From Isurus oxyrinchus (taxonomy: Eukaryota): a stretch of DNA of 64,000 bases. The stretch's first letter is position 1; the number at the start of each line of letters is the position of its first letter. A program made the position numbers and the translations under genes. The DNA is taken from NCBI GenBank assembly GCA_026770705.1, contig JANJGN010000042.1:992001-1056000 (forward strand), given 5' to 3'. This document shows positions 1,618 to 63,461 of this stretch, piece after piece. Below the pieces are notes generated by a model. That model had not been told where the DNA came from. It did not search any database and worked only from the letters and a program-made list of their open reading frames with translations.

Positions 1618-1652
1618 TAATTGTTTCCCTGGAGCCTGATATCAAGGATAAA
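1618..1652 (+). promoter_or_regulatory. Putative core promoter of GPCR paralog 1: homeodomain site + O/E(Ebf)-like site + degenerate TATA
   Basis: TAATTG 1618-1623, TTTCCCTGGAG 1624-1634, GATAAA 1647-1652 (57 nt before the ATG). The same module with the same spacing occurs in paralog 2. Confidence 0.55.
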
Positions 1653-1703
1653 TGTGACAATCTGTGAGTGCAGTGGAGAGCGCAACCGGAGTTTCTGATA
1701 GAA

Positions 1704-3946
1704 ATGCACTCATCACCAAAAGGTCTGCTGTTTGCCATTTACTATCCCTTCCTTGCAGCTATCGGAGTTCCAGGTAAAGAATTCCGGTTAACTATTAGTT
1801 ATAGAACTCATTGTTTAGCTCTGTGACTGTTATCATTTACAAATAATGCTTCTCCATCGGACCAATATCCTTTCTCCCATTTAAGCCAAATTATTCCAGT
1901 TAAATGATTTCTCCCATTTTGCAGTGCCATTTTTCAACCCTTTACCGTCATAGTATCTATACATTATCCATATAACTTGTCCTCAATAACAGTATATTAC
2001 TTTCACTTGACCAAGTAACATTTCATCCATTTAAGTTTATCCTTATTTACTGCAACCAACTCAAGGTGTAAATTTAATTGTTTTGTTGCTTCTGCTGTCA
2101 CTGTGGCTCCATTATCACACCGGTATCACAGTGAAAATTTGGTTCTATTGTGATTTGCCGCTGTCAAATCGCATGAGTTATCACACTGTAAATGTAGCTC
2201 TGTTGTTTTGTTGAAATGTTTACTGAATTATCACACTTTTACCCTGATGTGCATGTTGTTTCTTTTGCTGCAATATGAGTAATGGCCGTCTGTTAAAATT
2301 GTGTTGATTGTGTTCTACATTTTAATTAGACGGCGCCTCAATATATTTGCATAGCCAGCTTTTGACACACCAGCCACTCCTACAGCGCTTAAGTACTAGA
2401 GTAGAGCTTGAACCACAACCATCTGACTCAGGAGTGAGAATTCTGCTAAGTGAATCATGTTTTAAATATTGCCTGTATGTCCTTCTTTACTCGCAACCGT
2501 CAAGCTTTGTTACAATCTCTTCAATTAACTATCAATCAGCAGTCCCAGACTGTTCACTTTCCATGAAAACCAGCGTCCTTCCTTTAAATTAATAGCCGTT
2601 TCATGTATTGTGCACCCCAAGTGAAGCATTTTGCATTTCTCTGCATTGAATGTCATCTGCTGCCTTTATGACAAATTTCCTTAGTTTTAGTGTTTCTTGG
2701 ATTTGCTAAGGGCATGGTATTATCTTCTCTCATTTATACACGTTGAATGAGAGCATAAATGTTTGCATTTCCTGTAACTGAGTCAGGAAGTAGTGAGATG
2801 AATGCCCAATATAGAACTGAGCCCAGAATTAGCCCACAACTCAATACAGTGTTCTACGGAATGCTGCATTTTAGGAGGGATCTCTCTCTGAAGGAACAGG
2901 AAGGTCATCAACTGGAATTGCCAATTCTGGTCTCACTTCATATCTGCCTCCTGACTTCTGAGTATTTTCAGCTATTTCTCTTATATATTTGCTTCTGTAA
3001 GTTGCTTAATCAATGACTTTTTTGTCTATAATACAGCAAATTTGGCAGTGATTGTCATCCTGGGTCCGAGGAAGATGTGGGCTCTCCAGATGCATTACTT
3101 ACTACTTGGTATCCATGGCAGTGACAGATCTCCTGGTCATTGTAACAGCTGTGATATTAAACAGGATTGCCCGTATTTATTTCCCATTCAGCTTCCTCTC
3201 CATCATTCCAGTCTGTAGTCTCAGTTTTGTGCTAATTTATAGAGTCAGAGATTGCTCTGTCTGGGTAATTGTCGCTTTCACCTTCGATCGGTTTATGGCC
3301 ATTTGTTGCCAGAAGCGGAAAATAAAAAAACTGTACAGAGAAAACGGCGGCGGCGGTGATAGGAACTGTTTGTGTTCTATGCTGTTCTGTAAACACCCCC
3401 TGGTACTTTGTATATGAGCCTTCCTTTATCGTTAACAATACACCTTGGTTTTGTAATGCAAAATCCATATTTTACACATCGCCTATTTGGGCCGGATTTG
3501 ATTGGATTCTCATCATTTTAAGCCCCTGCCTCCCTTTCATTCTGATTTTACTGCTCAACCCTCTGACCGTCAGGCAAATTCTAGCAGCCAATCGATCCCG
3601 CAAGAGATTCCGGACCCACAGCAATGAAGAGAATCAGAGTGACCCGGAGATGGAGAAGTGGAAAAAGTCCATCATTTTGCTCATCTGTGTCTCGGCCAAT
3701 TTCATCCTGTTATATTCCTTATTTTTTATAACTATCTTCTACGTCAGAATTGCGAAGGTAACATATTCCTCAGGTTCTGATTCCAGTAACTCAACATTTA
3801 TTCTCGATGAAAGCGGAAATATGCTTCAGTTTTTGAGTTCCAGCATCAACCCATTTATTTATGCTGGGACCCAGAGTAAATTCAGAGAAGCGTTAAAGAA
3901 TAGGGTGAAATATCCCCTGACACTAATTGGCAAATTTTTTCATTAA
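1704..3946 (+). pseudogene. GPR139/GPR142-like class A GPCR, paralog 1 (exon 1 1704-1773, exon 2 3037-3946), two +1 frameshifts
   Basis: Exon 1 MHSSPKGLLFAIYYPFLAAIGVP, G|gtaaag donor at 1774, tacag acceptor ending 3036 (phase 1, giving ..GVP-ANL..). TM motifs YLVSMAVTDLLV, AFTFDRFMAICC, PCLPFILILLLN, NPFIY. Frameshifts at the G-run 3062-3064 and A7 run 3324-3330; no in-frame stops. Repaired length ~325 aa. Confidence 0.88.
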
Positions 3947-4299
3947 CCAAACCATTAAAGTCCAACATGATTTGGATCTTATAATCAATTCTTTTCTCTC
4001 TTTCTCCATGTCATGTACTGCCTCCCCTCCCAGCACCATTGTTACACGCTTAGAGATACATAGACTCTATATGAGGTAAGAATATGTAAGGAACGCTGCG
4101 CAGTTCAATTGTTCGTAAAATGTTACTTTTAAAATGTAATCAAGTCTGCAATTGGCAGTAAGTGGAAATTACTCTATATGTAGACTCTCTTTCTTGAAAG
4201 TTACACAGCTACTCACACTCCGATGTGAGTTCTGAGTAGTTAATTAGCTACCTTGTTGAATCTGGTAACTCTCACCCTAGTTCATTTGGTTATAAGTAC

Positions 4300-7200
4300 A
4301 GGGTTCCTTAGTGTAGCATTAGGAAACGGAGTGCAACTGTAGCAGTTGAGTGAAAACCTGAGAGCTTGGTGAGTGGGGTAATTCATTGAAGGAAGGGAAG
4401 TGGAGGGGTTCGGTTCCTTTTGTTTTATACCTGTCTGACAATGTAGAAACTCGTTCTCACCCTGTTGCAGGGAAAGGAGCCAGCTATCTTTTGAATATAT
4501 GTTAAATGGTTAAAGTAAATTCTATTCCTGAAGTTTAAAATAGAATACCAATTGGTGATAAACTTGATAACAATTTTTTTTAAAGTTTGAATGAAATAAT
4601 TCGTTAATTAATTTATACACATTATGGATGGCAGAGCAAGTGATGTTTCAAGGCTGCAGCATGTGGAAACTCCTGCATTCGAACTTTGGCTCAGGCTAAT
4701 TGTGCTGGTGGCTGAATTGCAGATGCTGTGAAGCATCGGGCAGGGGGGAATTTACCTGGATGCCTTGTCCCAGGAAGCATTCACATTACGAAGGATAGGG
4801 TCTATTGATTTAGGGTCTATTGATTTAGTCAGTGATCAGGGACAGGAGAGAGTGTTTCAGAGTGAGGAGGAAAGAGAAGCTAGGAGGAAGAAATGCAGGA
4901 GAATCAGCCTCTGTAATTACCCAAGAGGTTTGAGGTTCTCTCATCTTGTTTGGATGAGAAGAGAGTGGATGAGAAAACTGAGCATAGCGCCTTGGTGCAG
5001 GAAGCCATTCAAGTTGCTAGAGAATAAAATAATGTAGTGGTAGTAGGGAACAGTATAGTGAGGGCAATTGACACAGTTCTCTGCAGAAAAGAATGAGAGT
5101 CCAGACGACTGGTGCCAGTGTTTGGCACATCGGCTCAGGACTGGAGATGAACTAGCAGTGGAAGAGGCGTGGGCGTTGGGGGCAAATCCAGTTGACGTGT
5201 TCCATGTAGGTACCGACGACGTAGGTAGAAGCAGGAACAAAATTCTGCATTGAGAGTCTCAGGAGCTAGGCAGTAAATTAAAAAGCAGCAGCTCAAAGGT
5301 CTTAATCTCTGGATTATCCATCAAGGCTGGATGTTGCAAAGATAATAATACAAAACCAAAGGCTTTGCATCTATGTAACATTCGTAACAAGGTAACTGAT
5401 TCATCATGCATATTGAAGTAAATGCATACTATCTGATTGCTATTACAGGCGCGTGGCTGCAGGATGACAAGAATTGGGTCCTGAATATTGACATGCTCAT
5501 GGCATTCAAGAAGAGTGAGAAGTTAGGAAATGGTGGAGGGGTTGCACTGATGATCAAGGATGGCATTGGCGCAATTGTTAGTGATTACCTTGGTTCAGGA
5601 GATCAGGATGTGGAATCGGATTGCGTGGAGATGAAGAATAGTAACAGAAGAAGTCACTAGTGGGAGTGGTCTACAATCTTATAACGGTGACCACAATTTA
5701 AGACAAAATATACAAGAAGAAATGTTGTGTGCTTGTGATAAGGGGACAACAATAATCATGGTGAGTTTAAATAAATATAAATGGGAAAAATCTACCTGGC
5801 AGTAGTAGCTTGGATGAAGAGTTCACAGAATGCTTCTAAGGCAGTTTTTTTAAAGATGCACGTTCTGAAACCGACCAGAGAGCAATTGCATTAGACTGGG
5901 GTACAAGAAAAATACTGCAGAAGCTGGAAATCTGAAATAAATACAGAAAATGCTGGAAAAGCTCAGCAGGCCTGGCAGCATCTGTAGAGAGAGCAAGAGC
6001 GTTAAAGTTTTCAGTTTGTATGACTCTTCTCTGGCTCTGCAGAGGAGTCATTCATATTCGAAACTTTAACTCTTTTTCTAACTCCACAGATTCTGCAAGA
6101 CCTGCTGAGTTTTTCCAGCATTTTCTGCTTTTATTTAATATTAGATTTGATATTATGTAATGTGGCAGGATTAACAAAGGACTTCAGAGTTAAGGAATCC
6201 CTGTGTAGCATTGACCATAATTTGATTGACTTTTACATCCAGTTTGAAACTGAGAAGTTTGGGTCTAAGACTAGCATTTTAAAATGAAGCATGGGCAACG
6301 AGGTGGGCATGAAAGCTGAGCTAGCTGAAGTAAACTGGCATATCAGTATAAGGGATAGACAAGCATTGGAAGACATTTAAGGGGATACTTCAGAATACTC
6401 AGAATAAGTATATTCCTATGATGAAGAAAAATTCTAATGGGAGGACCTACCCATCCGTGGCTAAGTAAAAAAGTTAAGGGAAGCATCAAACTTAAGGAAA
6501 AAACATATCACTGCGCAAAGATGGGCAAATCAGCTGATTTGGTCAGAATATAAAGAATAGCAGAGACTGACTTAATTGTTAGTCAGGAAAAACAAATTAT
6601 AGAATGACAGGAAGCTAGCTAGAAATGTAAAGACGAACACCCCGCACCAAAAGTATTTAAGGTATTTGTGATGGAAAATAGTAAGTAAAGTGAGTGTTGG
6701 TCCTCCAGAGAATGAGGATGGCGAGTTAATAGTAGATAATAAGGAAATGGAGGATGGAATGAACAAATATTTTGCATCTGTCTTGGCTATAGAAGAATAA
6801 GTAAAATCATTGCAGTAAGAGCTGAAATCAGGAGGGAGAAGGGAGTGAGGAACTTGGTGAAATTGCAATCACTAACGAAGCGCTACTGAGCAAATTGGTG
6901 GAGCTGCAGGGTCCTCATGAACTTCATCCTATTGTCTTAAAAGAGATGGCTAATGAGGTACTGGATGCGTTGATGTTAGATTTCCAAAATTTCATAGATT
7001 CTGGAAAGGCTTAATCAGACTGGAAACACACAAATGTAAACCCTCTATTCAAGGGAGGGTTGCAGAAAACAGGAAACTATAGGCCAGTTAGCTTGACCTC
7101 TGTCGTTGGTAAGGCGCTAGAACCATTTATTAAAGGGGTTACAGTTGGGCACTTAGAAGAACTCAAGTTAACAGGGAAGAGTCAGGTTGGTTTTTGAAGG

Positions 7201-8470
7201 GCAGCCATGTTTAACCAATTTGTTATAGTTATTTGATGGACTAACGTGTGCTGTGGATAAAGGGGAACCTGTAGACTTTGTGTACTTGGGTTTCCAGAAG
7301 GCATTTGATAAGTTGCCACATCAAAGATTATTGTGGAAACAAGAAAAGCTCATGGTGTAGGGGGTAAAATATTAATCTGGATCCAAGATTGGCTGGCTGG
7401 CAGAAAACGGAGATTATGCATAAATTGGCCTTGGTCTGATTGGCAGGATGTGACTAGTGGGCCCCGCAAAGTTCTGTACTGTGGCCTTAACTTCGTACAA
7501 TTTACATCAATGACTTGGATTAGGGGAACGAAGGCATAGTATCGAAATGTACAGATGACACAAAGCTAGGCAGGAAACAATTTTGAAAATAAAAGATCAG
7601 CAGTTTGCAGAGGGACATAGGTAAGGTCAGTGAAGGGGCAGAAACCTGGCAGACGGAACATAATATGGGAAAATGTGAAGATGTTCACTTTGGCAGGAAG
7701 AATATGAAATCAAGTTATTACTTAACTAAGATCAGCTGCAGTATTCCAAGGCACAGAGGGATTTAGGTGTTCTAGTGCATGATTCACAGAAAATTAGTAT
7801 TCAGGTACATCAAGTAATTAAGAAAGCTAATAGAATGTTCTCCTTTACTTCAAGAGGAATTGATCATAAAAGTAAGGATGTTATGCTTCAATTATGCAGG
7901 ACATTGGTGACACCACATCTCGGAAACTGTGAAGTTTTGGTCTCCTTATTTATGTAAGGATGTAAATGCATTGGAGGCTGTTTAGATTATGTTTACCAGT
8001 TTGATAACTGGAAGGAGTGGGTTGTCTTATGAGAAGAGGTTGGGCAGGATGGGCTTGATTCCATTGGAGTTTAGAAGAGTGGCGGGTGATTTGATTGAAG
8101 TATACAAGATCCTGAATGAACTTGACAAGCTGGACGTGGAAATAATGTTCCCTCTTGTGCGTGAGTCCAGAACTAGGGGACACTGTTTTAAAATAAGTGT
8201 TCGCCCCTTTAGGACAGAGAAGAGCAGCATTTCCTTCGCTCAGATGGTAGTACAACTTTGGAACTCTGGATTGGAAGGCGATGGAGGTAGGGTCATTGAT
8301 TTTTTTTTAAGTAGGAGGTAGATAGTTTTTTTTAGACAAGAGAATCAAAGATTATCGGGGGCAGATGGGAATCTTGAATTCGAAACACAAACAGATCAGC
8401 CATGACCTTATCGATTGGCGGAGCTGTCTCGAGGGTCTGAATGCCTTCTCCTGCTCTTATTTGATACGTT
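4300..8470 (+). mobile_element. Near full-length decayed CR1 LINE (ORF1 zinc-finger/esterase, ORF2 APE endonuclease + RT)
   Basis: ORF1 remnants: CSMW near 4655 and VVVGNSIVR (GDSIVR-type esterase motif) near 5036. Endonuclease remnant GNGGGVALMIK. RT remnants AHGVGGKILIWIQDWL, LVTPHL, GLIPLEFRRVAGDLIEVYKILN. CR1-type 3' UTR ~8340-8470. Confidence 0.85.
5904..6139. mobile_element. Palindromic short element derived from the Penelope-like element 3' end, inserted in CR1
   Basis: Arm ~5936-6030 is the reverse complement of arm ~6041-6136. The right arm matches 17490-17588. Degenerate TSD attagactggggta (5890-5903) / attagatttgata (6140-6152). Confidence 0.75.
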
Positions 8471-9749
8471 GGCCTTTGGAGAAGGAGAGTCCGAATTGTA
8501 ATCTGCTATGGGGTTAACCGTTTAATAACGTAATACCAATATCCTTCTTGGGTAATATTTGGCCCTTGACGGTAGAATATACTTTGAAATGGAAATAAAT
8601 ATGGTCTTCACTCTTTGTTTCCTGTTCACGAGGCGTCATCCCACAGCCACGTTACTGTTTCAAAATACATGAAACAGGACTAGATAGTGGAGAAAAAATA
8701 AAACATTCGTTCAACTTTTATTCATTCAATTGGCCAATTGTGAGGAAATCCCCAGTGTCATCAACCGTTATCGAACGAATCCAAGAAAAGTTTCTCTTCT
8801 TTGGAAGGTTACAAATAATAAACAATCAAAACATAAAAAAGTTATCAAATGTAATGGTATTATTATCTTCACTGTCGGCTACGCTCTTAATTGTTTTTTT
8901 ATTTTGCAACCCTCATAACTGTGTAATGCAAGATCGATTACATTGCTGACTCGTCATAACAGTCTCCATCAATCATTTTACCCAGGTGCAAGGCAGGGCA
9001 ATTATCCCGAGCTCGAGACGTGTAGGAACCAGGGGCGCAAAATTAATCGGAAGGGTCCATTGGAGGCTGAGCATTGCTTTTACTTGGGCGCGATGAACAG
9101 CCAGCTTTTTCCTGTGTGGCCAGTCCAGCGTTACATGTATAGAAAGCGGAAAGCTGGCGTTCCATCTCCCTGCTCCGGGAGGCTTTGAATCGGTGTTTTC
9201 CTTTCGACACACAGTGATGCCAGCATTTTAAACTTGGACACGAGTGTCCAATTTAGGTTCATCTCTGTCTCTCTGAAATCTATAGGTGCGGAGATATAGA
9301 TTGGCCCCATAATGCGTGTGATGCCTGAATTGCAGGTGATGCAACTTTGTATAGTTTCTGCTTTTGCAAAGTGGCAAAACCTGGAGTATTTTTGGAGCAT
9401 CTGTGATGACTTTAGGAATTTCTCAGCGAGTTTTGTAGCAAACTCATAGGCCGTGCGGTGAGCATAGTGACTTGTCCACAAAGGTTGCAACAGATTTGGA
9501 GCTGAGGTTCCAGTGTATCTGGGTCTTCGGAACGGCAAGTGGGACGGAGAAGGAACTTCGGAGAAGGGAGTTTTGTGTCCAGACCGTTAGAAAATTGGAG
9601 ACAGACTGCTGAGTGACCCTTTACAATGTAAGAACATCAGTCGCTATCTTAGTCAATGAAGCCAATATCTTGGAATGCAAACAGCACTCCCCTATCTTCT
9701 GCTCCATTCCAATTACGACTCAACTGTGAACATTGGAGCAGGACTACAT

Positions 9750-10025
9750 CAGAACATGAGAATTAGGAGCAGGATTCAGCAATTTAGCACCTTGAGCCTG
9801 CCCCACCATGCGATACAATCATGGCTGATCTCATTTTGGCCTCAACTCCAATTTCCCGCCCTCTCCCTGTAAGCCTTCAACCCGTCACTAATTTAAATTT
9901 GTCTATCTCCTACTTAAATTTATTCAGCGTCCAGTCATCCACTGCACTCTGACGTAGTGTATTCTACAGGTTCACGGCCCTTTGAGAAAAATAATTCCAC
10001 TTCATTGCTGATTTAAATCTACCAA
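9750..10025 (-). mobile_element. CR1 3'-end fragment
   Basis: Reverse complement of the CR1 3' tail seen at 8200-8470 and 42105-42360 (e.g. aatcatggctgatctc, ctgtctatctc). Confidence 0.7.
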
Positions 10026-10911
10026 TTCTGGTGGAACACAGAGAGCAGAAAAGTGAATGGAACTTCAATGCCCATCAGCAAGAATGGCTCAATACCAATA
10101 TTGACTGAGCTGGCCAAGTCATGAAGGAGATATCTACCAGACCGGTCCCCCAGAAGGTGTTGAGAGAACACAAGGAGAAAACTTACTTGAGATGGAGCTC
10201 ATTACTCTACCTGGTACAGATCCATCTCCCACGTCAGTATTGGTGGTAGTGTCCACCGCACTTTCCTTTTGGATACAAAGACCTATCTTCAGACTGATGG
10301 CACCACCCATCGCGTTGTGTGGCTTAATCATCGTCCGTGATGAACTCAGAGCTATTAAGGACAATTGGCGATAGTTAGCATCACTTGCAATAACCTCAGT
10401 GTCCAAAATTCATCGGTCTCCGCTTGCAGGAGACAATTTTAACCAAACATGTGCTTTAATTTATGACTGTAAAATGTCTTAAAGTCCTTATCAGACACGT
10501 GAAACCAAGAAAAAAGGCTCATAAAATAAAACTGGCGGTAGAGTCTTCAGAATCTGGTTCTTGATGTCGGCCTGTTTAGAATGGTAGGAACAATATTTTA
10601 AAATTCAACACGCTACACCTACTGGATCTGCACGAACGAAGATGACGAGGTTGAAATAATGATTCTACTTTCATGTATCATTCTACAATGCTATTTAGTC
10701 ATCTGCTGAACCTGCAATTTTTCCTCAAATACTGCCCTTGCATTACACCAGCGAATACAGCTCAGAAGTGTTTCAGTAGTTCTAAAGCGTTTTTGGGGCA
10801 TCCTGGAGCATTGAACAGCGCTTTATAAACGCAAGTGTTTCTTTCTGTGAAAGAACAGAAAGTTGAAATTGTGAAACTTTGCTATAGTTATCAATCACTC
10901 GGAGTTGACGA

Positions 10912-11560
10912 CTGTGTGTGTACAAGTTTTGGTCTGCGCGGTGTGTGTGTTTATGTGTGGGTGTGCGTGTTTGTGTGCATAGGTGTTGTGTGTGCATGTG
11001 TGTCTTTGAGTGTACGTGCATTTCTGTATGTGTTTTGTGTGCTTATGTGTGTGTGTTGGGGGGTCGTAACGTGTCACGTGTGTTTGTGCATGTGCGTTTG
11101 TGTAGACATGTGTATGTTTTCGTGCGTCTGTGAATGTATCTGTTTGTGTGTGTGTGTTTTTGTTGTGTGTGTGTGTTTGTTTGCTTTGTGTGTGTGTGCT
11201 TATGTGTGTTTATTTCTGTGTGTGTGTGTTTGTGTGAGTATGTGTTGTGTGTGTATGGGCCTGCATTTATGTTTGCGTCCGTCTGTGAGTGTGTATGTTT
11301 GTTTGTGTATTTTGTATGTGTATGTGTATGTGTTTACCTGTAAGTGTGTGTCTGTGTATATATGTGCATGCGCGCCCGCACCACCTTTGTGTGTGTGTCT
11401 TGTGTGTGTGTGTATGTAAGCGTCCGTGTTATTTGTGTGCGTTTGTGAATTTGTCTTCTTGATTGTGTTTTGTGTGTGTTTGTTTTTTTGTGTTGTATAT
11501 CTGTATATGTTTCTTTGTGTTTGTGTGTGTGTGTGTTTGTGCGTGTGTGTGCTTCTTTGT
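10912..11560. repeat. Degenerate (GT)n microsatellite / low-complexity tract
   Basis: Directly visible tgtgtg-rich sequence over ~650 bp. Confidence 0.95.
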
Positions 11561-12284
11561 GCGCATCTGATTACGCCTTTCTGCTGTCCACCTCAGTCTC
11601 TCTCTCTCTCTAATGCTTATTCTCTCATTTGCTCTTTGTTTCCCTCCACTCGATCGATCACTCTCATGAAAGATCTACCGCTGTTGATGGTTAATTAACC
11701 CAGGATTGCTCCCTACACCATATTGCTCTGACACACCTCTAATAATTACATAGTCATGTCATGGATTGTTCAGCTTCAGTTCTACAATGGATAATTATTA
11801 GTTGTGATGTTAATTTTCCTGATGAACAAGATTATATTTTAAATAATGTTATAATACATCCGTATCCCTTGGTGTGGCTTCAGATAATCATGAGGAGATA
11901 AAACCAAAGGAGTAAATTTCGAAAAGGAGAATGCATATTTGTGATGTTTTATTTTAATAATCAGTGCAAAGTGCTGGAGAACTAATAAAGACAACTTAAT
12001 AAAGACTGAACTCACATTCCTCTCAAAACAGTAATGGTTTGTATTGCTGTTCAGTCACAAAATGAATAGTAAGTCAATGTTTTCTCAAAACAGTTTACAA
12101 AACAACAGTCTATAACACGCAGGAATGACTGGGGAGATTGACGCTCATGTCTATGGGATATAGAATGCTGACAGACACATAATAAAACCGGGTTATTTCC
12201 AATACAAGTCTGTAACTGGAGATATGTTTACATCCCTGTGTTCCCCTTTATCTGCAACGCATGTTGCTTCTTAAAAGAAAGCCA

Positions 12285-12460
12285 ATAAATTGGTCAGACA
12301 TGATTTCACACTCACAAAAATGCGCTGATTTTATCTAATTACCTTGAATTTGGCTCAGTGCCCTGCTACAACGCCTTTAATAATAGATTCTAACATTTTC
12401 CTATTACAGATGTTACACTAAATGGCCTGTAGATTCGTTTTTTACTGACAACTTTCCTTT
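12285..12460 (-). mobile_element. CR1 RT fragment
   Basis: Reverse complement matches the CR1 'NYRPVSLTSVVGK..SQHGF..SCLTN' region (compare 7075-7220). Confidence 0.6.
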
Positions 12461-14341
12461 TTAACGTTGTGGATCACCCGTGGCTTCACAGGTGAGAGGA
12501 AGTATTTCAATGACTCGTGGGTAGGTGGGGATCGACTCACCTCTCAATTATCTGTGTAACAAGGGAATTCTTACTCAGGAGAAGCAGTTTAGCTGTTCTG
12601 CCCTTGAGAATGGATAACTCAGTTATTCTGCCTGCTGTTACATCGTTGAGTTCACAAAAGACTGATGATCAGCTGTCATTGCTGCTGTTAATCTTCTTCA
12701 CGCCTGAGCCGTACTCATTCTGGCAGTTAGACTGTGCTTCTGCAAATTTTAATGACCCCAATAATTGTTTTCAGATTGTAATGCACAAAACTGTGGGGAT
12801 ATAACGAAAACATATGGCGGGAGGCTGGAGGGTGGGGACACGCTAAAGGTCTAAATGGAGTGTGCCACTCTAAAATAATTGGAAAATGAAATATATGTTT
12901 GCTGATAGACATTGTGATTAGGTGATTCTGGGAATTAGAAGTCAGAAACGATGATTCCAAGAGTAACCCATTTCATCCAGTAGTTCTGCATGTCTCTCAT
13001 TTTACATCTAAAATGTGCATGACATCGTCGGAGAGCAGAATGCTTGAGAACAACTCAGTGGTGCAACACACTTCCCAGTCCACGGATCGAAACCAGCAGC
13101 CCGGCAGCACTGGGGGCATTTTCCAATGGGCAGTGGACAAACTGGTTCTTCGCGGGCATAGGAAAGTCAGGTACTGAGCACACTTAAGCCAACAGAGCTA
13201 TTACAAAGTGTCACCCGCTCTCAGGCAACTTCGGGTTTGACATCGAAGCAACTTCATATCGTAGGGCCTTCAAAAGCTTTCCCCAGCACAGCTGAAACTG
13301 TGATGTATGCGGGGATTTATAATACACATATGTACAAAACTGCCTCTTTTAATTTGCTCTATGAATGTGAGGATTTTACAGGAACACCGTCCAGAATTTA
13401 TTCACAGCAGCCACACCATAAACAGGCATAATAGGACGATAAGGCATATCAATGCGTGGTGAAAAGATGGTGCAGGAGGGAGGGCTTTAGTTTGCTGGGG
13501 CACAAGGACTGGCTCTGGTGGAGTTGGCACCAGGACAAACCGGCTGGTTGCATCTGAAAAGACCGAGAATAGGTTCCTTGGGAGGGTTTGAAACTAACTC
13601 GGCCGGGATGTTGAACCAGGGGAGAGTATTAATGAGGAATATCAGGGTGCACAAAATACTTGGAGACATATATAACGCCATAAAAGTGATTAATAAGTTA
13701 GTAGGTGGGGTTTCTGTGAGGGAGAAAATAACAAATTCTAAATCATGTTTACTATACATGTATGTGAATGCGCGATGTACAGTCAATACAACTGGGGAAT
13801 TACAGACGCAGGTTGCCAGGTGCAAATATGATCTTTTGGCGACAGCAGAAACCTGGCTCAAGGAAGTGCAGAACTGGGTGTTAAACATTTCTGGTACAAG
13901 GTATTCAGAAAAGTTAGGTAAGGAAGGAAAGGAGGAGGTTGGCTTTATTGTTTAAGGAGACCGTTGCAGTGCTGGAGAAAGAGGATGTCCCACAGTGTCC
14001 AAGGACAGAATCAATTTGGCTAGAGCTAAGGAGCAAAAGAGTGCGATTACATTGCTTGGTGTACTCCATAGGCAGCCAGCTAGTGAGGAAGGCGTAGAAT
14101 GACAAATCCTCAGGGATAATATGGAGGTTTGCAAGCATTATAGAGTAGTTTTAATGAGGGACTTCACTCACCCGAATGGAGACTGAGACAGTGGCAGTGT
14201 AAACGTTGGAGAAGGGCAAATGTTGCTAGATTGTGTTCAGGAAAGAATTACTACAGTAGTATGTGTCCAATCCAACAAGAAAAGAAGCAATTTTTTTGTT
14301 TTTATCTCTGTGTTTAATTGACTGCCACTGCTCTTCAAGAA

Positions 14342-17085
14342 ATGCCTACCTCCTTGAAGAAGTTCTGTCCGTCTCTGCGACAAGATTTCTGTATCTCTCT
14401 TTTGCCCTGCTCACATTCATTGCTTTCCATTTCTCTCCTGGTGTTTGACAAGGTGTTTACTAAAAGCCGCTTTCACAGCCATATCTCCTTTCTCAGTGAC
14501 TGTCTCCATCTCCGACTTACCCCACGTGGATTTCAACTGAAATTCCACCCCTCATGTTTCGAACCCACCCAGGATTACAGGTATCTCCGGGACATAAAAC
14601 GTTTCTCGGACTGCTGTCTCCGTCACATTCTGAGATCCACACTCAGTGCCATGCGCCACCATATGAACACACTCGACCTCTCCCTCCAGCAGCACCGCCG
14701 TACCCTTTTTCAAAGCAGCGCATGCCCCCAGTTTCAGTTTACTGTTCGGCTTATCCGACGCCTCAACAAGAAACTTTTTCTCTTTCTCTCAAGTGCTAAG
14801 GAACGCAAGCTCCAACAACTCATCGACACCAACACCCATCTAGGACCCTCCACCCCTGCCTGTCCCTCCGACCCCACCCCATCTTCTAATCCCATCCCCA
14901 GCCGTGTATTCACTATACCCCCTGACCTTCCCCTCTCCGATGCTGAACGTTCAGTGCTCAGCAAAGGACTTAGTTTCATACCCTTACGCCCTCACCTCAA
15001 TGAATTTCGGGCTTGGCATGATGCTGAACTCTTCGTCCGCCGTCTTCGTCTCCGGGCTCACATCTTTGGGCAGAGGTCCTCTCCCAGTTCAATGGATCCT
15101 TTCACCCACCTCCAATATTGTCCCTCCAACTGGACCCCTCCCTTTGGATTCTTACCTTCTCTTGATCTTTTCATTGAGAACTGTCGGTGCGACATGAGTC
15201 ATCTCAATTTCTCTGCTCTTCTCACTCATTCTCATCTCTCTCTCTGAACTGACTGCACTCCGTTCTCTCAGGTCCAACCCTGACATTGTCATCAAACCCG
15301 CTGACTAGGGTGGTGCTGTTGTTGTCTGGTGCACTGACCTCTACCTCGCAGAGGCTGAGCGTCAATTCGCAGATGCTTCCTCCTACCTCTCCCTGCACCA
15401 TGACCCCGCCACTGAACATCAAATCATTGTTTCCAGGACTGTCACTGACCTCATCTCCTCTGGGAATCTTCCACCCACAGCTTGCAACCTGATAATCGCC
15501 CAACCTCGGATGGCCCACTTCTATCTCCTACCCAAAATCCACAAACAGAACTGCCCCGGTAGACTGATCATGTCAGCTTGCTCCTGCCCCACAGAACTCA
15601 TTTCTCGTTATCTTGACTCCCTTCTCTCTCCCCCTGTCCAGTCCCCTCCCACATACATCCGTGATTCCTCTGACACCTTACGTCACATCAACAATTTCCA
15701 GTTCCCTGGCTCCAACTGCTTCCTCTTCACCATGGACCTCCAATCCGTCTACACCTCCATCCCCCACCAGGATGGTCTGAGGGCCCTTAGCTTCTTCTTT
15801 GAACAGAGGCCCAAACAATCCCCATCCACCACTACTCTCCTCCGTCTGGCTGAACTCGTTCTCATGCTGAACAATTTCTCCTTCAACTCCTCTCACTTCT
15901 TCTAAATAAAAGGTGTGGCTATGGGTACCCGCATGGGCCCCAGCTATGCCTGTCTCTTTATGGGGTATGTGGAACATTCCTTGTTCCAGTCCTACTCCAG
16001 CCCCCTTCCACAACTCTTTCTCTGGTACATCGATGATTACTTTGGTGCTGCTTCATGCTCTCGTTGAGACTTGGAAAAAATTATTAATTTTGCTTCCAAT
16101 CTCCATCCCTCCATCATTTTCACGTGGTCCATCTCTGACACTTCCCTTCCCTTCCTTGACCTCTCTGTCTCAATCTCTGGTGATAGACTGTCCACCAATA
16201 TCCATTACAAACCCACCGACTCCCACAGCTACCTCGACTATCGCTCCTCACACCCCGCTTCCTGTTAGGACTCCATACAATTCTCTCAGTTCCTTCACCT
16301 CCGTCGCATCTGTTCTGATGATGCTACCTTCAAAAACAGTTTCTCTGACAAGTCCTCCTTCTTCCTTAACCGACGTTTTGCACCCATGGTCGTTGACAGG
16401 GCCCTCAACCCTGCCCGGCCCATCTCCCACACATCTGCCCTCACGCCTTCTCCTCCCTCCCAGAAACATGATAGGGTCCCCCTTGTCCTCACCTATCACC
16501 CCACCAGCCTCCACATTCAAAGGATCATCCTCTGCCATTTCTACCAACTCCAGCATGATACCACCACCAAACACATCTTCACTTCACCCCCCCATCGGTA
16601 TTCCACATGTATCATTCCCTCCGGGGCACCCTGGTCCACTCCTCCATCACCCCCTACTCCTCATCCCCCTCCTATGGCACCACCCCATGCCCACGCAAAA
16701 GATGTAACACCTGCCCCTTCACTTACTCTCTCCTCACCGTCCAAGGGCCCAAACACTCCTTTCAAGTGAAGCAGCATTTCACTTTCATTTCCCCCAACTT
16801 AGTCGACTGCATTCGTTGCTTCCAATGTGGTCTCCCCTACATTGGAGAGACCAAACGTAAACTGGGCGACCGCTTTGCAGAACACCTGTAGACTGTCAGC
16901 AAGAATGACCCAAACTTCCCTGTCGTAACACTCCACCCTGCTCTCTTGCCCACATGTCTGTCCTTGGCTTGCTGCATTGTTCCAGTGAAGCCCAACGCAA
17001 ACTGGAGGAACAACACCTCATCTTCCGACTAGGCACTTTGCAGCCTTCCGGACTGAACATTGAATTCAACAACTTTAGGTCGTGA
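14342..17085 (+). pseudogene. Disrupted Penelope-like RT/GIY-YIG polyprotein ORF
   Basis: ATG 14342 (MPTSLKK) to TGA 17083-17085 (QPSGLNIEFNNFRS*). Broken by a frameshift near 15240, stops near 15306, 15903, 16266 and 16889, and further frameshifts. Confidence 0.85.
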
Positions 17086-17487
17086 GCTCCCTCCCCCATC
17101 CGCACCCCCTTTCTGTTTCCCCCTTGCTTTTGTTTTTTCCAATAAATTATATAGATTTTTCTTTTCCAACCTATTTCCATTATTTTTAAATATTTTTAAA
17201 TCTTTTATACACCTCCACCCCCACTAGAGCTATACCTTGAGTGCCCTACCATCCTTTCTTAATTAGCACATTCGTTTAGATAATATCACCAACATTAACA
17301 CCTATGTGTTCTTTTGTTCTGTTGTTTGTGACACCTTTTGATGATCTGCTTCTATTACTGCCTGTCTGTCCCTACAACCGCACCAAACAGCTCCACTTCT
17401 CTTTCTCTTCCCCCACCCAATCCACACCCCCCCCCCCCAACACACCTTAAACCAGCTTATATTTCACCCCTTTCGTGGACTCACTCA

Positions 17488-17526
17488 AGTTCTGTCGAAG
17501 GGTCATGAGGACTCGAAACATCAAAT
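17488..17526 (+). ncRNA. Degenerate minimal hammerhead ribozyme motif at the Penelope 3' end
   Basis: agtt-CTGTCGA(17492-17498)-A-GGGTC-atgag-GACTC-GAAA-C-ATC-aaat. The core differs from CUGANGA at one position; stem II is 5 bp. Confidence 0.55.
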
Positions 17527-19742
17527 CTTTTCTTCTCCGCTGATGCTGCCAGACCTGCTGAGTTTTTCCAGGTAATTTTGTTTTTGTTAAGAAAAGAAGC
17601 ACTGTTGGACCTGTTTCCTGGAAATGAGGTGGGCCAAGTAGATCCAGTGTCAGTGGGGGAACACTTAGGATACAGTGATCATTGTATTGTAAATTTTAGG
17701 ATGATGAAAGAAAATGACGACAGACAATCCAGAGTAAGAATATTTAGCCGCCATCGATGGGGCATTTAGGGAGCTGTGCCAGAGAGGCTGGAAGGAAAGA
17801 TTGACGGGGAAAGAAGAAACTGGAGTGGAACAATGATTTAACTTCAAAAAATAATTAGTTCACGCACAGTCAAGGTGTATCCCAATGAAACGGAAAGGTG
17901 AAACGAACAAACCCAGAGCTCCCTAGATGTATAAAGAGATAACATTTACGTTGAAGTAGAAAATATATGCTTATGACAGGTCGAACATACAATTGAGAAA
18001 CAACAGGAATAGAGGAGATTCAGGGGGGAGGTGAAGAAAACAGAGTAGAAAAACGAAGAGGGGTTACCAGAAAAGGCTGGCAGCCAACACAAAGGGGAGT
18101 CACTAAGTCTTCTCTGGGCCTGAACATAGTGAAAGGGTATAAACGGAGGAGTTGGACCGATTTGCGAGTGAAAAAGGAATTTACACATGTCTGAGGTATT
18201 ATGTGAACAATTTGCATTCATCTTGACCCAGTTGTTAGAAGCAATCAAGGCCTTGGTGACAGAAAAGGAAACGCTGCCACTTGAACTGTTCTAATTGATA
18301 AGGGAAGTGCTGCATAGAATGTCGATACTTAAAGCTGTCAAGGTGCCAGGACACAATGAGATGCGTCCAAGGATATTGAACGAAGCGAAATTGGAAACTG
18401 CAGGGGCACTGACCATAAATTTTCAGTCTTCCCTTGAATCAGGGGGTGGGGGGGAGGTCTGTGGTGGTGGGGGGGGGACGGTGTCGGGGGGGGGTGGGGA
18501 GGGGGCGGGCGCGGGGGCTGGTGGTGCCAGAAAGACTGGAGAATTGCAAACATTACGTCCTTATTCAAAAATGGTTGTAAGGGTAAACCCAGCGAATAAA
18601 GGCCAGTCAGATCAACATGGTGGTGGGCAAGATTGTAGAATCAAATATTCGGGGTAGAATTAGCAGCTGCCTGGAAAAGTATGGGTTGATAAGGAAAAGT
18701 CAGCATCGAGTTCTTAAGGGGAAATCGTATTTAACTAACTTGTGGAGTTGTTTGAAGAGGTAGCAGAAAAGGTCGATGGGGGTAATGCTCTTGATGTGGT
18801 GTACATGGACTTTCAAAAATCATTCGATACGCTGCTAAACATCAGAATTGTGAGAAAATTAACTGCTCATATAATAATGGAGACATTGCAAAATGGATAC
18901 AAAATTGGCTGAACAATAAGCAGCAGAGAGTAATGGTCAATGGACATTTTCCGGGCTGGAATGGTCTACAACTGCTCCAATACTCCATTGTTCATGTCTT
19001 CCAATGCAATTAATGCTAAGTTATCTGTAGGCAATATAAAACGTTCTCCTTAAAACATTCAAAGTTAATCAAGAACATGAACATACAATCTCGCAAGGCG
19101 ATTCGGGAGGCCCTGTACAAGTTGGCTGCCGAGATCTCTTTATAAACAATTCTCAAGGCGCAGGTTGGAGCTTAGGGTGTCTTCCCATCCGCATGATTTA
19201 ATGTTTAAAAGCATGCAAACACTTTTCAAAATATTTTGAAATGTGTAAACCAATTGCAAAGTCTTGAAAAATACCTTTATTGTGTTTAGATGTATTTAAG
19301 GTTATAATAAAAGACGCAACAGCTTTTGAGCTGAATAGTGACCGCAAGACAAGTGTCTGGGGTTCGTTACCTCTTAAGAGGGCGCGATTTCGCCATGACT
19401 TCGGCCCTCTGTTGGTCTACGTCAATGTTTTACTCTGTGGGCCCTACAACAACCTAAGGTTGAAATCTTCGTGTCAGCCGATGAAGAAGGCAAATTTGCA
19501 GACAGCGTGGTCATTCGCAAACATGGCTGCTTTGACTCGGATGCAAAATGTCCAGTCCGTTTTTTGTTTAGAAAAACTTGCAGCTGGAATCATGCTGTAG
19601 CCTCTGGGCATTTTAGTTCAGAGCCTAGTCAGATTCCATGAAAAAAAATTGAATTGATCAACACATTAACAGCCGAGAAGCAGCTGCATTAATCTGTTTA
19701 TTACAAAAAAAGGTAATAAATTTTTAGGTAGATCAAACCATT

Positions 19743-19777
19743 TAATTATTTCCCTGGAGACTGAGATTAGGTATAAA
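19743..19777 (+). promoter_or_regulatory. Putative core promoter of GPCR paralog 2: homeodomain site + O/E(Ebf)-like site + TATA box
   Basis: TAATTA 19743-19748, TTTCCCTGGAG 19749-19759, TATAAA 19772-19777 (58 nt before the ATG). The 17-bp module is 16/17 identical to paralog 1. Confidence 0.6.
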
Positions 19778-21059
19778 GGTGAGATTTCTTACAATGTAAG
19801 GTAGAACTTGCTCAGAGTTCCTAATCGGAATGCACGTCTCACCAAAAAGCCTGTTGTTTGCCATTTACTATCCTGTCCTTGCTGCTATCGGGATTCCGGG
19901 TAAAATTTTGTTGTTATTTCGTAGTTTTGTGAATCATTGTTTAGATACATTATTCCTTCAATTTTAACAGTAGGGTGTCTACACGGTCCTGAAATCCGTT
20001 CTCCCATCTAATGGTAAATAATTTTCACATTGACTGATATAAATTCATTACATTAGCTGACACCATTTCTCCACCATTTTTCCTCTACAACTGTATCATT
20101 TCTCCATGTTAACGGTGCGATTTCTTTTATTGACACAGTTACTCGAAATTGATGGTTAAGTATCTCTCTCTTAGCAATGTGATGCTTTCCTCTTTGCTCG
20201 CATCGATCATTCACTTTAAAACTTCTCTTCCTTAATTATATGCTGACTTCCTAAAGCTGGACCCATTTAATCGGTTTAATTATACAGTTCATCCCATTTA
20301 CCACCATCATCTTACGATGTCATTGTACTTTAGCTGTGTTGCTGTCACTATTACTTTACGTGCCTTATCCTAATGTTGTCACGATGTAAAATGTGCTGTT
20401 AATAATGTCATTGTTCTGTTAACAATGCTGTTATGGGTGAATGACCGCAATGTCAAAATGGTGCAAATGCAGTTTTATTGTGTCACTTGGAAGGGTCCCT
20501 GGGTATATTTTCAGTCTGTTAACACAGTGTATATGCACTCCTGTTTTATTCACGCCTTCACTTCGAGAGAATTATCACACTGTTGTCACAATGTCCATGT
20601 TCATCTATTTAATTATTGCCACTGTTAATTTGATTGAATTATCATATTACAGTCACTATGCAACTCGACACATATTGGGATTGACAATGATGGGGGTAAT
20701 TAGCAGAAGTGAGATATTATTGAAATAATTGTCCCATTTAGCAATTTCTGATTGAATTTAATTAATTTATATATTCTGCAATAGCTTATTAGTGTTCGAT
20801 GCATTGATAAATATACATGTAATGTAAAAATAGCACTTTGATGAATGATTGAATTTGTCTCAGTCGCACAAAGCAGTGTTTTTGGTTCTCAGTTTCTGAC
20901 ATTCGCTGCTTCAGCCCTGCACTCTTCTTCCGCATTAGCTCCTGCTAGTGGCTGTACATTTCTGAGTGCTGAATCTGGGACTCCCTTCTGCTCCGAGCAG
21001 CAGGCAATATCCCGGAACATTCCCATCTTCATTTTCACGGCCAGACTGACTTAGGACAC

Positions 21060-21350
21060 AAACTGGTCACATCTTTCTCATCTAAGGCACAGAGATTTGA
21101 TTTCAAGTAGCCACGAAAGCCCAAAAATAATCATTTTTCATCGATGGTCTAGTGCAACCCTCAGGAAGTGCTACATTGTAGGAGTGTCTTTTTGTTGCAA
21201 ATGGGACCTCATTCTCTCGCACTCTCAGTGGTTTGAATCGCACCAGAAGATTCTGGGTGATTATTAGCAGAAAAAGCCATGCTTAGCTCTGTGTATACCC
21301 ATTATTTCCTCTGCAAAGTCAGAGAAACGCTGATTGTTCGGTCTCTCTTC
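21060..21350 (+). mobile_element. Decayed Deu-domain-like SINE fragment in the GPCR intron
   Basis: Resembles the reverse complement of 27170-27585 and 40040-40865. Confidence 0.4.
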
Positions 21351-21596
21351 TGAGGTTGATTTTATTTTTGATCACGTTGCCTGTCTCCTTTTATCCAAAG
21401 GATCAGTTTTAGAGCAATTCATTGGATGTGACAACTGTTGACCATCCGTGAGTTGTGGTTCGATGTATTATTCGTTTCCACAACTGTTGTTGGTTGTCCT
21501 TTTTTGTCCACGTATTTATTTGCCAGTGTGTTATTTTCTTACGCATTCGTTAGTCTTGTACTGGTTTTGTTGTGTTTCGATGATTACTTATTTCTC

Positions 21597-21700
21597 AAAT
21601 AAAATAGAGAATGCTAACAAATCTCAACAGGCCTGGCAGCATCTTTGGAAAGAGAAATAGAGTTAATATTTCGAGGCTGAATGGCTCTTCATCAGAGCAG
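21597..21700 (-). mobile_element. Penelope 3'-end fragment with hammerhead motif (in GPCR paralog 2 intron, antisense)
   Basis: Same sequence as the left arms of 5904-6139 and 56028-56247. Minus strand reads CTGATGA-A-GAGCC-attca-GCCTC-GAAA-T-ATT-aact. Confidence 0.7.
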
Positions 21701-24700
21701 TTGCTTGTTTCTCTAATGGTTCTCATTATATTATTGTGCATTCCATTACAGTCAGCCCACCTATCTGCTTTAACTCGAATGATTATTTCAATTGATTCTA
21801 GTGCAAATAGTACTTTGCAACTCACTATCACACCTCTGATGTATAAATATCACACCAACTCCTGTTACATGGATGTTTTTGTTGGAATCCAAGCAGTAAC
21901 TTTCCAGGTTTATCACTGTCACACACGCACTTTTTTTTCCTCTATATATTACAGCTAACCTGATTGTAATCCTGTCTCGAAGAAGATGTGGTCTCTCTAA
22001 ATGTGTCACCTGCTACCTGGCGTCTATGGCGGTGACAGATCTCATGGTCATGGTCACAGCTATGATATTAAACTGGATTTCTGGGATCTATTTCCCATCC
22101 AGTTTTCTGTCCATCACACCAATATGCAGCCTCCGCATTGTCCTAATTTACATAGCCATAGACAGTGCTGTCTGGTTAACCGTTGCTTTCACCTTTGATC
22201 GATTTATGGCCATTTGTTGCCACAAGCTGAAAATAAAATATTGTACTGAGGAGATAGTGATGTGGGTGATCGGAACTGTGTGCACACTAACCTGCGTAAA
22301 AACACTTTCTTGCATTTTGTGTACGAACCTATGTACATAATTAACAATGTGCCCTGGTTCTGTGTCCTAAAATTAATGTTTTATACGTCATCTGCTTGGG
22401 CTGCATATGATTTAATTCGTTCTATTTTAATGCCCTGTCTTCCATTCATTCTGATTTTACTGCTCAATGCTCTGACAGTCAGACACATTTTACTGTCCAA
22501 TAGAGCCCGCAGGAGACTCTGGGCCCAGAGCAATGGAGAGAATCAGAGTGACCCGGAGATGGAGAATCGGAGAAAGTCAATGGTTTTGCTTTTCGCCATC
22601 TCGGGCAGTTTCATCCTGTTATATTTGTTATTTTTTGTTACGATCCTCTCCGTCCAGATTGCAAAGGTCATTTATTTCTCAGGTTCTGATTTCAATGGAT
22701 CGACATTTAACCTGGAAGAAACTGGATATATGCTTCAGTATTTGAGTTCCAGCATCAACCCGTTCATTTATGCTGGGACCCAGAGTAAATTCAGAGGCAA
22801 GTTTAAGAATGGGGTGAAATATCCACTGAGCCTAGTTGTTAAAATGTTTAATTTTTGAAATGTCGAAAATGCAACATGAATTCTGCATTAAACTCCAACA
22901 TTTAAATTTCTAGTTCGTGGCCCACATGGCCTCCCTTACAAGTTGCACTCGTTTGTAGACCCTTACCAGAACTATTGAAATGTATTAAGAACCTTGAATC
23001 TGCACACAAATCTGCACTGGAAACTGTCTTGCTGGAGTTCCACAAGTTCTTGCCTGTCGGGCCCTGACAGGCATTCCCAGCAACCTTGAGGGCGCCTGAA
23101 GCCAGAATACATTTTGGGCTTAGCACCAAGTGGCTCATGCAAGCACGAAATTTATATTATTCTTCCAAGGGATGCCACCCTCCCTGGAAAGGCCAGCAAA
23201 CATTTGGCATCAGTAAATATCCTTCCCAAGTCAGAGTCCTGGCTCTATGCACAGCCTAGGTATTCCTCCATTGCCCTCGCATTGGAGGGCATAGCGTCTT
23301 GAAGCTGTGCCTGATGATTACGCACCACCCACAGCTGCTTCAGTATCTGCCACCTCGGTGATGTCTCCAGATGTACTTGAGCATGCTGAATCGAAGCAAC
23401 GCCCCGGCCCTAAAATGTCTTCTGGGCATAATTGGCACCTACTCCTTCACACCTCTGATGTGCTTTCCAAACTGTGACACTCTGACTGCTTCTATGCGAT
23501 CATGCACCAACGTGGATCCACCTGCACAGCATACAAAGGAGAAAAGACGTGACTTACACTCTAAGAAAATTCTTTCTTGTCTTCCGATGCGGGATCTTCC
23601 TGCAGACGCCGATCTGGCTGCTGTTGTTCAAAACCTGCAAGAGATAGCAGCAATGAGAAGGCAACAAGTCCGTCTGACTAGTCAAGATCTGGAACCCCTT
23701 CTGACTAATGGGTGACATGTGCACTTCATGTTTTGTTCTCTGCAGAGGATCTCTTGCGCCGATGTTTTCATGCATTCACTCTCTTGGCGATCCACCTCCG
23801 TGTCATCATTAAAGATGTTCCACTCTGCCTTCATGCCTCACATATCCAAAGCCTCTTCATTCACAGGCATGATGCTGGCCATGCGTGTCTGCTACCTCCA
23901 GTTCTTTCCTTTCCCTTGTATTGTATTGGGCCTCAGCCTGCAAGAGAATAATTTACATTGTTGTTCGCCCATCAAAAGCTTGCCTCATGGCTATGGGTGT
24001 GGCAGCAATCTGTAAGTAATTGATCCACAAGCATGGCTTCTGCATGTGGCAATTAAATACCCTTTGTACAGGGGTGGTCACTGCCTCACCATTGTGTTGC
24101 ACAGAGAGGATAGCAGCATTACACAGGCAACAATGATTCTGACCCGATGTGCAGATCCTTCATCTGAATTCTCATTCGAAGCTGCCACCTCAATACTGTA
24201 TGCTGCAGTTTCCTTGCTTCCCATCATTGCCCCTCGTTCAGCACTGCATTACTGCCCACTTCCACACTTATCCCCATGTTTGCCCGCTTGGCCAACCTCC
24301 CGGTAGTGCCGCGAAAGAACAGAAATTGCCTTTGAGGGTCTGCAAACTGGCAGCCATCAATAAGTCGAGGTGGACCCATTTCTCCGCCCTCTGCCAAGTC
24401 TACAGTGTCGCTATCCCTTGCTGTTTCCTCGGAGATGCTGTCTTTGAAAGTAATGCTGGCTGCCCATGCATTTTGTTGGCAATCATATCTCCCCTGGTAC
24501 TTCCTGTCGCACACAACTAGGAATTGAAGGAGCAGAAAGGGTGACATATTAGAGGTCTTACCTGCATGGTGGCCGATCACAGGTTAAACAAAGAACAGGA
24601 AATGCAGTGCATATTTGCAGCTGGCCATTATGATTGGAACAATGTGGGAAATCGCCAGCAAACACAGTTAGCCCTGTAGTACTGCCTGTATGAAGCAGAA

Positions 24701-62966: not shown

Positions 62967-63423
62967 ATGAATATTTTCTGCCTTTCGCTCCTTTTAACCT
63001 GGTTACCAAGTAAGTGCTGTTCGCTAAAAAAGAGTGTACAGTAACTGGTTAAATTAGTGTGGCTGCGCCCGTATTGTGTAATTTGCCTTTGCCTTTAAAT
63101 GTTTTCATTGTTTCAGACCCGCAAGTTATTTAATATATTTTCTCCATTCAGGTACCTTCAGTATTAGAGTGGACCAAACACCAAGAACGGCAACGAAAGA
63201 GACAGGCGATTCCCTGACAATCAACTGCGTCCTAAAGGATGCTAGCTGTAGCTTGTACTCTACATCATGGTTCCGGAAAAACCCGGGATCAACAAATTGG
63301 GAACGGATAACCATTGGCGGCCGATATGTTGAATCAGTCAACAAGGGAAGCAAATCATTTTCCCTGCGAATCAATGACCTGACAGTTGAAGACAGTGTCA
63401 CGTTTTACTGCAGAGCTGAAACT
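62967..63423 (+). CDS. IgNAR: IgNAR germline V gene segment, type II VNAR (leader exon 62967-63009, intron 63010-63151, V exon 63152-63423)
   Basis: Leader [15 protein letters not shown]|gtaagt; acceptor ttcag ending 63151 (phase 1, giving STFS). Mature [87 protein letters not shown]: VNAR hallmarks (no CDR2 strands, [14 protein letters not shown]), extra Cys in CDR1, no FR2 Cys. Open frame. Confidence 0.96.
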
Positions 63424-63461
63424 CACAGTAATGAGTTTGAACTTCTGCTCATACAAGAACA
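63424..63461 (+). other. V 3' recombination signal sequence (23-type, 22-bp spacer)
   Basis: CACAGTA 63424-63430, 22 nt, ACAAGAACA 63453-63461. Confidence 0.93.

Follow-up and report, generated by a model that had tools for sequence, protein, structure and literature searches.

Two receptor genes and a promoter element

The window analysed in this study is a stretch of 64,000 nucleotides from the shark Isurus oxyrinchus (assembly GCA_026770705.1, contig JANJGN010000042.1, positions 992,001 to 1,056,000 of the forward strand), and it holds two frameshifted members of a very large receptor gene family, here called genes A and B, together with a germline antibody gene near its end. Exon 1 of gene A (1704..1773, + strand) comprises 23 codons plus 1 base and encodes the N-terminus and the first half of transmembrane helix (TM) 1 (MHSSPKGLLFAIYYPFLAAIGVP); after a phase-1 GT-AG intron, exon 2 (3037..3946, +) encodes the remainder of the seven helices. 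Gene B is likewise made of two exons on the same strand (19830..19899 and 21955..22858, +), and the start codons of the two genes lie 18,126 bases apart, matching the two-exon paralogs 18.1 kb apart of a preliminary description of this DNA. The motifs DRF, ENQSDPEME and NPFIYAGTQSKFR were present in both genes as described there, and all four exon-2 pieces scanned matched Pfam 7tm_1. The very short N-terminus was also recovered, since helix 1 begins at residue 5 in the AlphaFold model of a database family member. A translated search found no further family copies besides A and B in the window or in 30 kb of flank.

Measured on open-frame sister copies, A and B were 70.6% identical, with 78-82% identity over the N-terminus to intracellular loop 2. 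Identity fell to 50% in TM4, 58% in extracellular loop (ECL) 2, and 59% in TM6, with 69 and 71% in ECL3 and TM5, respectively; the divergence previously noted in TM4-ECL2-TM5 and TM6-ECL3 was therefore clearest in TM4, ECL2, and TM6. The frameshifts noted for both genes were located as well. Gene A carries two private 1-base insertions that lengthen homopolymer runs, one in the G run at 3062-3064 and one in the A run at 3324-3330. Both were missing in seven of seven sister copies, five of which were intact, the one on contig C26 among them, and in the matching contigs of two of two DNA runs from another organism at ~97% identity. An assembly error was considered for these homopolymer insertions, but the private changes of gene A, 11 nonsynonymous to 4 synonymous, would fit real decay, and gene A is likely a recent pseudogene.

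Two deletions were located in gene B, one of 6 bases and in frame near 21960, the other of 1 base near 22298. Among its eight sister copies, four had the 1-base deletion, three others had a stop, and one had an open frame; because the deletion is shared with four sister copies, gene B is read from the alignment as an inherited pseudogene. In the only open-frame sister (contig C126), Lys replaces the Asn of NPxxY, and this copy may therefore be impaired too.

Upstream of each gene, a composite-like element was found in which a homeodomain core precedes an EBF/O-E-like site. For gene A it occupies 1618..1634 (+), with 1 mismatch to the published 17-base pattern, and is followed after 12 bases by a TATA-like box (1647..1653, +). 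For gene B, the element lies at 19743..19759 (+) and the TATA box at 19772..19778 (+). In both genes, 3 bases separate the homeodomain core from the EBF-like site and a further 12 bases separate this site from the TATA box, which stands ~57 bases before the ATG. The Lhx2/Ebf composite motif was defined in mouse olfactory neurons, at the enhancers called Greek Islands (PMC5608512, PMC11643329, and PMC7804114, from passages of each). The order and spacing of the shark element equal those of this composite, as given in the published pattern (PMC11643329) and in the register of the Sfaktiria probe (PMC5608512, supplement 7).

Exact matches to this layout numbered 34 genome-wide, all with the 12-base spacer and all on contigs of the family, and a looser layout pattern gave 47 matches compared to 2 in the control. 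At one fixed offset, 9 of 28 TATA-anchored promoters departed from the composite pattern by no more than 1 mismatch, with a background of 1.2% per position. As the published composite pattern is degenerate, a strict form was counted in addition. It occurred in 7 of 40 non-redundant promoters, including both window genes, compared to 1 in 172,160 background positions; this form was defined after the data had been seen, and one of the seven is a sister of gene A. A second sample covered divergent subfamilies, in which exon 1 was reached by the fetched sequence at only 8 of 40 loci, so that divergent promoters were thinly sampled. By its distribution in these samples, the composite element appears confined to the A/B subfamily. 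A separate TGTTT(G/A)-like element, which resembles a forkhead site, was observed 90-190 bases upstream of the ATG (1574-1585 in the window). It was present in 25 of 40 non-redundant promoters, among them promoters of divergent subfamilies without the composite element.

A receptor family expanded in sharks and rays

An own-genome protein search returned 150 scored matches, all at 62% identity or more, and a divergent query added 124 further scored matches, nearly all at other places in the genome. A strict 11-codon motif matched 328 times in the genome and its control 0 times, while a looser 10-codon motif gave 2,447 matches compared to 1 for its control. DR was read at 98 of the 100 loose matches listed, and when 40 loci of this list that were new to the analysis were fetched, every one scored as a family member. 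The genome-wide copy count suggested in the preliminary description thus came to thousands rather than 1-3 copies. The family comprises ~2,400 class A G protein-coupled receptor (GPCR) loci expanded in sharks and rays.

In the 40-locus sample, drawn from the first-listed contigs, exon 2 had an open frame in 17 loci, one of which was out of frame at its start; 16 were therefore intact and 24 broken. This proportion points to intact-looking loci in the order of a thousand. The lineage-expanded, birth-and-death family that had been proposed from two copies is shown by these counts, with many pseudogenes. In public protein collections, 1,200 clusters matched at E≤1e-5, and the 120 listed were all shark and mostly auto-named "probable GPR139"; family members are also named from skates and rays. 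ESM Atlas matches were confined to auto-names and Srw/FMRFamide-like look-alikes. A coral metatranscriptome was seen to hold short contigs of the receptor family, one ~97% identical over 247 bases, which are probably stray shark DNA or contamination.

No paper describing the family was found in a targeted literature search that used partly loose queries and the top-ranked records, with subscription papers outside its range. The terms GPR and GPR139 had no match in the passages covered of PMC10620051, PMC8455134, PMC11979771, PMC11641339, and bioRxiv 2026.08.31.747588.

Pfam 7tm_1 was above its cut-off in three of three intact exon-2 proteins. None of the three matched an olfactory-family Pfam model (olfactory receptor (OR), TAAR, V1R, or V2R) up to E=1, the only matches being 7tm_1 and a sub-threshold domain of unknown function. 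The AlphaFold model of a family member reached a predicted local distance difference test score (pLDDT) of 91.9 and showed seven helices plus helix 8; a run on a shallow alignment gave a pLDDT of 48 and was not used. With the DRF and NPFIY motifs also present, the family is one of class A (rhodopsin-like) GPCRs.

For the analysis of selection, 75 open-frame sequences from the first fetches were reduced to 27 by dropping those below 60% identity to the reference and collapsing the rest at 90%, which left copies under 90% identity to one another with a mean identity of 66%. The ratio of nonsynonymous to synonymous substitution rates (dN/dS) was 0.35 overall, 0.41 in the pocket, 0.33 in the outer TM, 0.24 in the inner TM, 0.38 in extracellular loops, and 0.44 in intracellular loops, the 37 pocket-facing sites being those we take to face the pocket in class A receptors generally. 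Pocket dN/dS was above that of other TM sites (permutation p=0.0025) and of the outer TM alone (p=0.027), and mean entropy was 1.33 in the pocket compared to 0.65 in the inner TM. Codon comparison thus shows the old paralogs to be under long-term purifying selection, with a pocket that appears more variable than other helix parts. By the same comparison, the old paralogs would be functional receptors with varied pockets, a reading that stops short of strong diversifying selection.

Ancestry and the ligand pocket

The preliminary description had placed the pair with GPR139 and GPR142, and a distant tie to these receptors was found. GPR139 ranked first in a profile search of the PDB with 54.3 bits, followed by the thyrotropin-releasing hormone (TRH) receptor with 52.3 bits, and a fold search with the confident model also ranked a GPR139 entry first, at 22% identity and among many similar peptide receptors. 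A single-sequence PDB search returned no GPR139, only TAAR, orexin, and amine receptors at E≥2e-4, and no match at 1e-5. Identity of the family to GPR139/142 was 22-24%. The shark GPR139 exon and exon 2 of the family begin at the same codon, in phase 1, just before the TM1 asparagine, and this shared intron position implies deep common ancestry only.

The closer relationship implied by the word paralogs did not hold. A GPR139 motif was matched once in the genome, compared to thousands of family loci, and this locus was 95% identical to GPR139 of another shark and 86% to a human record; the genome has its own separate GPR139 orthologue. GPR142 is also present in cartilaginous fishes. In a careful tree of 27 rows, the family was sister to a salamander orphan receptor (100/99), followed by coelacanth and teleost orphans, and a quick tree of 63 rows had the same shape. 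A forced clade of the family with GPR139/142 was rejected on the 27-row tree by an approximately unbiased (AU) test, run after the first tree had been seen (p-AU 0.00024). On these trees, the family is placed outside the GPR139/142 clade as a separate lineage.

The salamander, coelacanth, teleost, and caecilian orphans are likewise auto-named "probable GPR139" and share ~32% identity with the family. Unlike the shark family, the salamander orphan gave no sign of expansion among the records covered, with one cluster of 5 members from 3 species. These neighbours may correspond to the GPR210A/B sets of Rinne et al. 2019 (PMC6504862), and the passages searched of that paper held no match for shark, milii, or cartilaginous.

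L-Trp and L-Phe activate GPR139 and GPR142, which are orphan class A receptors of vertebrates, and mutagenesis found F109, H187, W241, and N271 important for GPR139 activation (PMC5430874). While GPR139 is the best profile and fold match among solved structures and shares the intron position and phase, the family has TM3 and ECL2 cysteines and a longer ECL2, which GPR139 lacks, is without the TM6 proline, and has key pocket residues replaced. R244 was added as a fifth residue, at the position we take it to occupy in the pocket. Of these five, none is kept in 15 of the 27 non-redundant copies, one in 8, and two in 4. At position 3.33, most family members have Tyr, which is a conservative change. 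Since the residues of the Trp/Phe pocket are not kept, the amino-acid sensor proposed in the preliminary description finds no support from the pocket.

Candidate functions and the IgNAR neighbourhood

With about even confidence, judged from sequence patterns, the intact members of the family would form a chemosensory repertoire, most likely in olfactory neurons; the pair in the window are broken copies. The promoter element adds one indirect line that makes a chemoreceptor role plausible. That sharks have few canonical olfactory receptors, as the preliminary description stated, is in line with the very small OR, TAAR, and V1R sets reported for sharks (passages of PMC11979771 and PMC10116579); in the catshark, about 34 V2Rs are counted and the other three olfactory families have only 4-9 genes apiece, and the keen smell of sharks has been explained as sensitivity without discrimination (both in a portion of PMC10116579). 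The catshark olfactory epithelium is described as all microvillous, with Go and TRPC2 (PMC11979771 and PMC10116579, in part).

As a mechanism, the family would have arisen by the expansion, in sharks and rays, of a lineage distinct from that of GPR139/142. Factors of the Lhx2/Ebf type would bind the composite element and switch single genes on in sensory neurons, and each receptor may bind a different water-borne ligand in its extracellular pocket, probably in another manner than Trp and Phe are bound in GPR139. Signalling would proceed through a G protein, in sharks presumably in Go/TRPC2 microvillous neurons. The pair in the window, by the same account, would have multiplied passively with the IgNAR cluster and would now be decaying.

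More tentatively, and at somewhat less than even confidence, this would be a further independently evolved olfactory family of sharks and rays, with many hundreds of genes and rivalling mammalian OR repertoires. Its source would be an orphan receptor related to GPR139 that did not expand in bony vertebrates, and every member of the A/B subfamily would have its own Lhx2/Ebf switch beside the TATA box instead of relying on distant enhancers. If the family is expressed in the nose, a hidden set with roughly a thousand intact-looking loci would overturn the picture of sensitivity without discrimination and would add a new example of the recruitment of a non-olfactory GPCR to chemosensation.

Several observations weigh against an olfactory repertoire of this kind. 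EBF and Lhx2 also act in B-lineage cells and in other neurons. The composite element is inherited and thus amounts to one observation, not many independent ones; it was found in none of the 5 TATA-anchored promoters of the divergent subfamilies in the second sample, and it is only moderately more conserved than the neighbouring spacer. Many family loci are near-identical, and some of these may be uncollapsed haplotypes, so that distinct receptors would lie far below 2,400. Allowing dN/dS above 1 improved twice the log-likelihood difference (2dlnL) by only 6.3, with kappa at the lower edge of its grid in the site model, and only 2 of the 6 flagged sites lay in the extracellular pocket or an extracellular loop. 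The site-wise dN/dS suggested in the preliminary description therefore came out mixed, with a pocket above other TM sites but at 0.41 and with weak positive selection, and the loops and C-terminus are about as variable as the pocket. Recent copies also appear to evolve near-neutrally. The mouse composite motif is a mark of enhancers, and OR promoters are depleted of it (passages of PMC5608512 and PMC11643329). Catshark olfactory neurons are microvillous with robust V2R expression (a portion of PMC10116579), and a catshark brain and olfactory epithelium sample, in which sparse receptors could be missed, had no GPCR in the list of its 50 most abundant and specific genes (PMC11979771, in part).

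The neighbourhood of the pair bears on the alternatives. A germline V gene lies at 62967..63462 (+), with a leader exon at 62967-63009, a V exon at 63152-63423 that matches Pfam V-set, and a recombination signal at 63424-63462, and at least three immunoglobulin (Ig) C1-set constant exons lie 7-11 kb beyond the window end (flanking stretch L093, 2910-7068). We take this gene to be of IgNAR type from its VNAR features and the layout of the cluster. Each of the nine close copies of gene B is followed on the same strand, 37.4-42.2 kb downstream, by a close copy of the V gene, and eight of the nine are preceded by a listed copy of gene A another 18.9-20.1 kb upstream. This shared spacing indicates that the two receptor genes and the antibody cluster were copied together, as a single cassette. 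The cassette would have been copied about nine times and appears to drift near-neutrally, with private codon changes of 34 nonsynonymous to 10 synonymous in the copies of gene A (neutral ratio 3.4) and changes of 45 to 19 in those of gene B (neutral ratio 3.5). Genes A and B are thus best read as decaying passengers of IgNAR cluster duplication and not as adaptive tandem duplicates of a receptor. The preliminary description of the pair was accurate, and it did not contain the size of the family, the promoter element, or the IgNAR cluster at the window end.

Nine other V genes at 78-96% identity and one at 74% were found in the assembly, which suggests about ten IgNAR-type clusters; three IgNAR loci, fewer than this, are given for the nurse shark (a passage of PMC11641339). 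Downstream of the V gene, further heptamer-like sequences at 63673-63971 are probably D segments with recombination signals, and a simple motif scan over the next 3 kb found no J segment. About 110 more distant V-like genes at 39-52% identity lie on contigs C26 (23-40 Mb), C140, C151, C152, C210, C242, and C301. They are probably a locus of T-cell receptor (TCR) or NAR-TCR type with receptor genes of the family interspersed, an arrangement that resembles the OR clusters flanking mammalian TCR loci. Elsewhere in the window, degraded retroelement-like open frames occur at 14318-16769, two of which gave no Pfam match at E≤0.001 when tested, and fragments resembling long interspersed nuclear elements are scattered. 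Repetitive open frames mark a CA/GT-rich simple repeat at 10830-11600 between genes A and B and a long tandem repeat array at 33600-37100 between gene B and the V gene.

A receptor repertoire of immune cells, such as B cells or other leukocytes, that senses peptides from microbes or the host is an unlikely explanation, though it draws on this neighbourhood. EBF1 is a B-cell regulator and Lhx2 has been reported in pre-B cells. Every one of the nine near-identical gene B copies has an IgNAR-type V gene on the same strand 37-42 kb downstream, and family loci also stand among the many Ig/TCR-like V genes of contig C26. However, most family loci are on contigs without V-gene matches (C2, C7, C9, C17-C21, C32-C35, C44, C59, and others), the decay or drift of the IgNAR-linked copies fits hitch-hiking, and a shared cluster neighbourhood alone is common among fast-duplicating families. 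Shark or1 and or4 are spleen-specific, a further point in favour (a passage of PMC11979771).

Also unlikely, and a little more doubtful, is a chemosensory role outside the nose, in taste buds, solitary chemosensory cells of the skin and gills, or the gut. The sequence hallmarks would be the same as for olfactory neurons, and divergent subfamilies without the composite element keep a TATA box and the upstream TGTTT-like element and may therefore be expressed elsewhere. Shark chemoreceptor genes often shift tissue (PMC11979771, in the part concerned). Against this, the element of the A/B subfamily matches a motif that was defined in olfactory neurons. If the family proves to be immune or cutaneous instead, it would still be a very large undescribed receptor expansion of vertebrates.

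A mostly non-adaptive expansion, in which a compact two-exon gene multiplied in duplication-prone regions around a small functional core with one or few ligand classes, is rather improbable. Near-identical blocks repeated many times, some of them possibly uncollapsed haplotypes, are consistent with it, as are the near-neutral drift of recent copies, the 24 broken loci among the 40 sampled, and the weak positive selection. It is opposed by the old paralogs, which at a mean identity of 66% have a dN/dS of 0.35 over all sites and 0.24 in the inner TM, and by the many diverged subfamilies retained throughout sharks, skates, and rays, which would be lost under neutral copying.

An expansion of GPR139/142 paralogs as aromatic amino-acid sensors is very improbable and on the trees already contradicted as to ancestry, as the best PDB match by profile and fold and the shared phase-1 intron are set against a margin of only 2 bits over the TRH receptor, 22-24% identity, a true GPR139 locus in the same genome, the AU rejection of a joint clade, and pockets that never keep more than two of the five key residues.

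For the chemosensory repertoire, two known systems serve as a comparison. The shark element is alike to the composite motif of the mouse Greek Islands in the order and spacing of its homeodomain and EBF half-sites. The mouse motif lies in distant enhancers, whereas the predicted binding site in the shark is in the proximal promoter of the gene itself. The OR, TAAR, V1R/ORA, and V2R/OlfC families resemble the shark family in a large clustered repertoire with many pseudogenes, a short N-terminus, a variable pocket, and homeodomain and O/E-like promoter sites. In contrast to them, the shark family has no match to their Pfam models, a different ancestry, and a conserved coding intron. In its pattern the shark family works like an olfactory receptor family, but it belongs to none of those families and falls outside the GPR139/142 clade.

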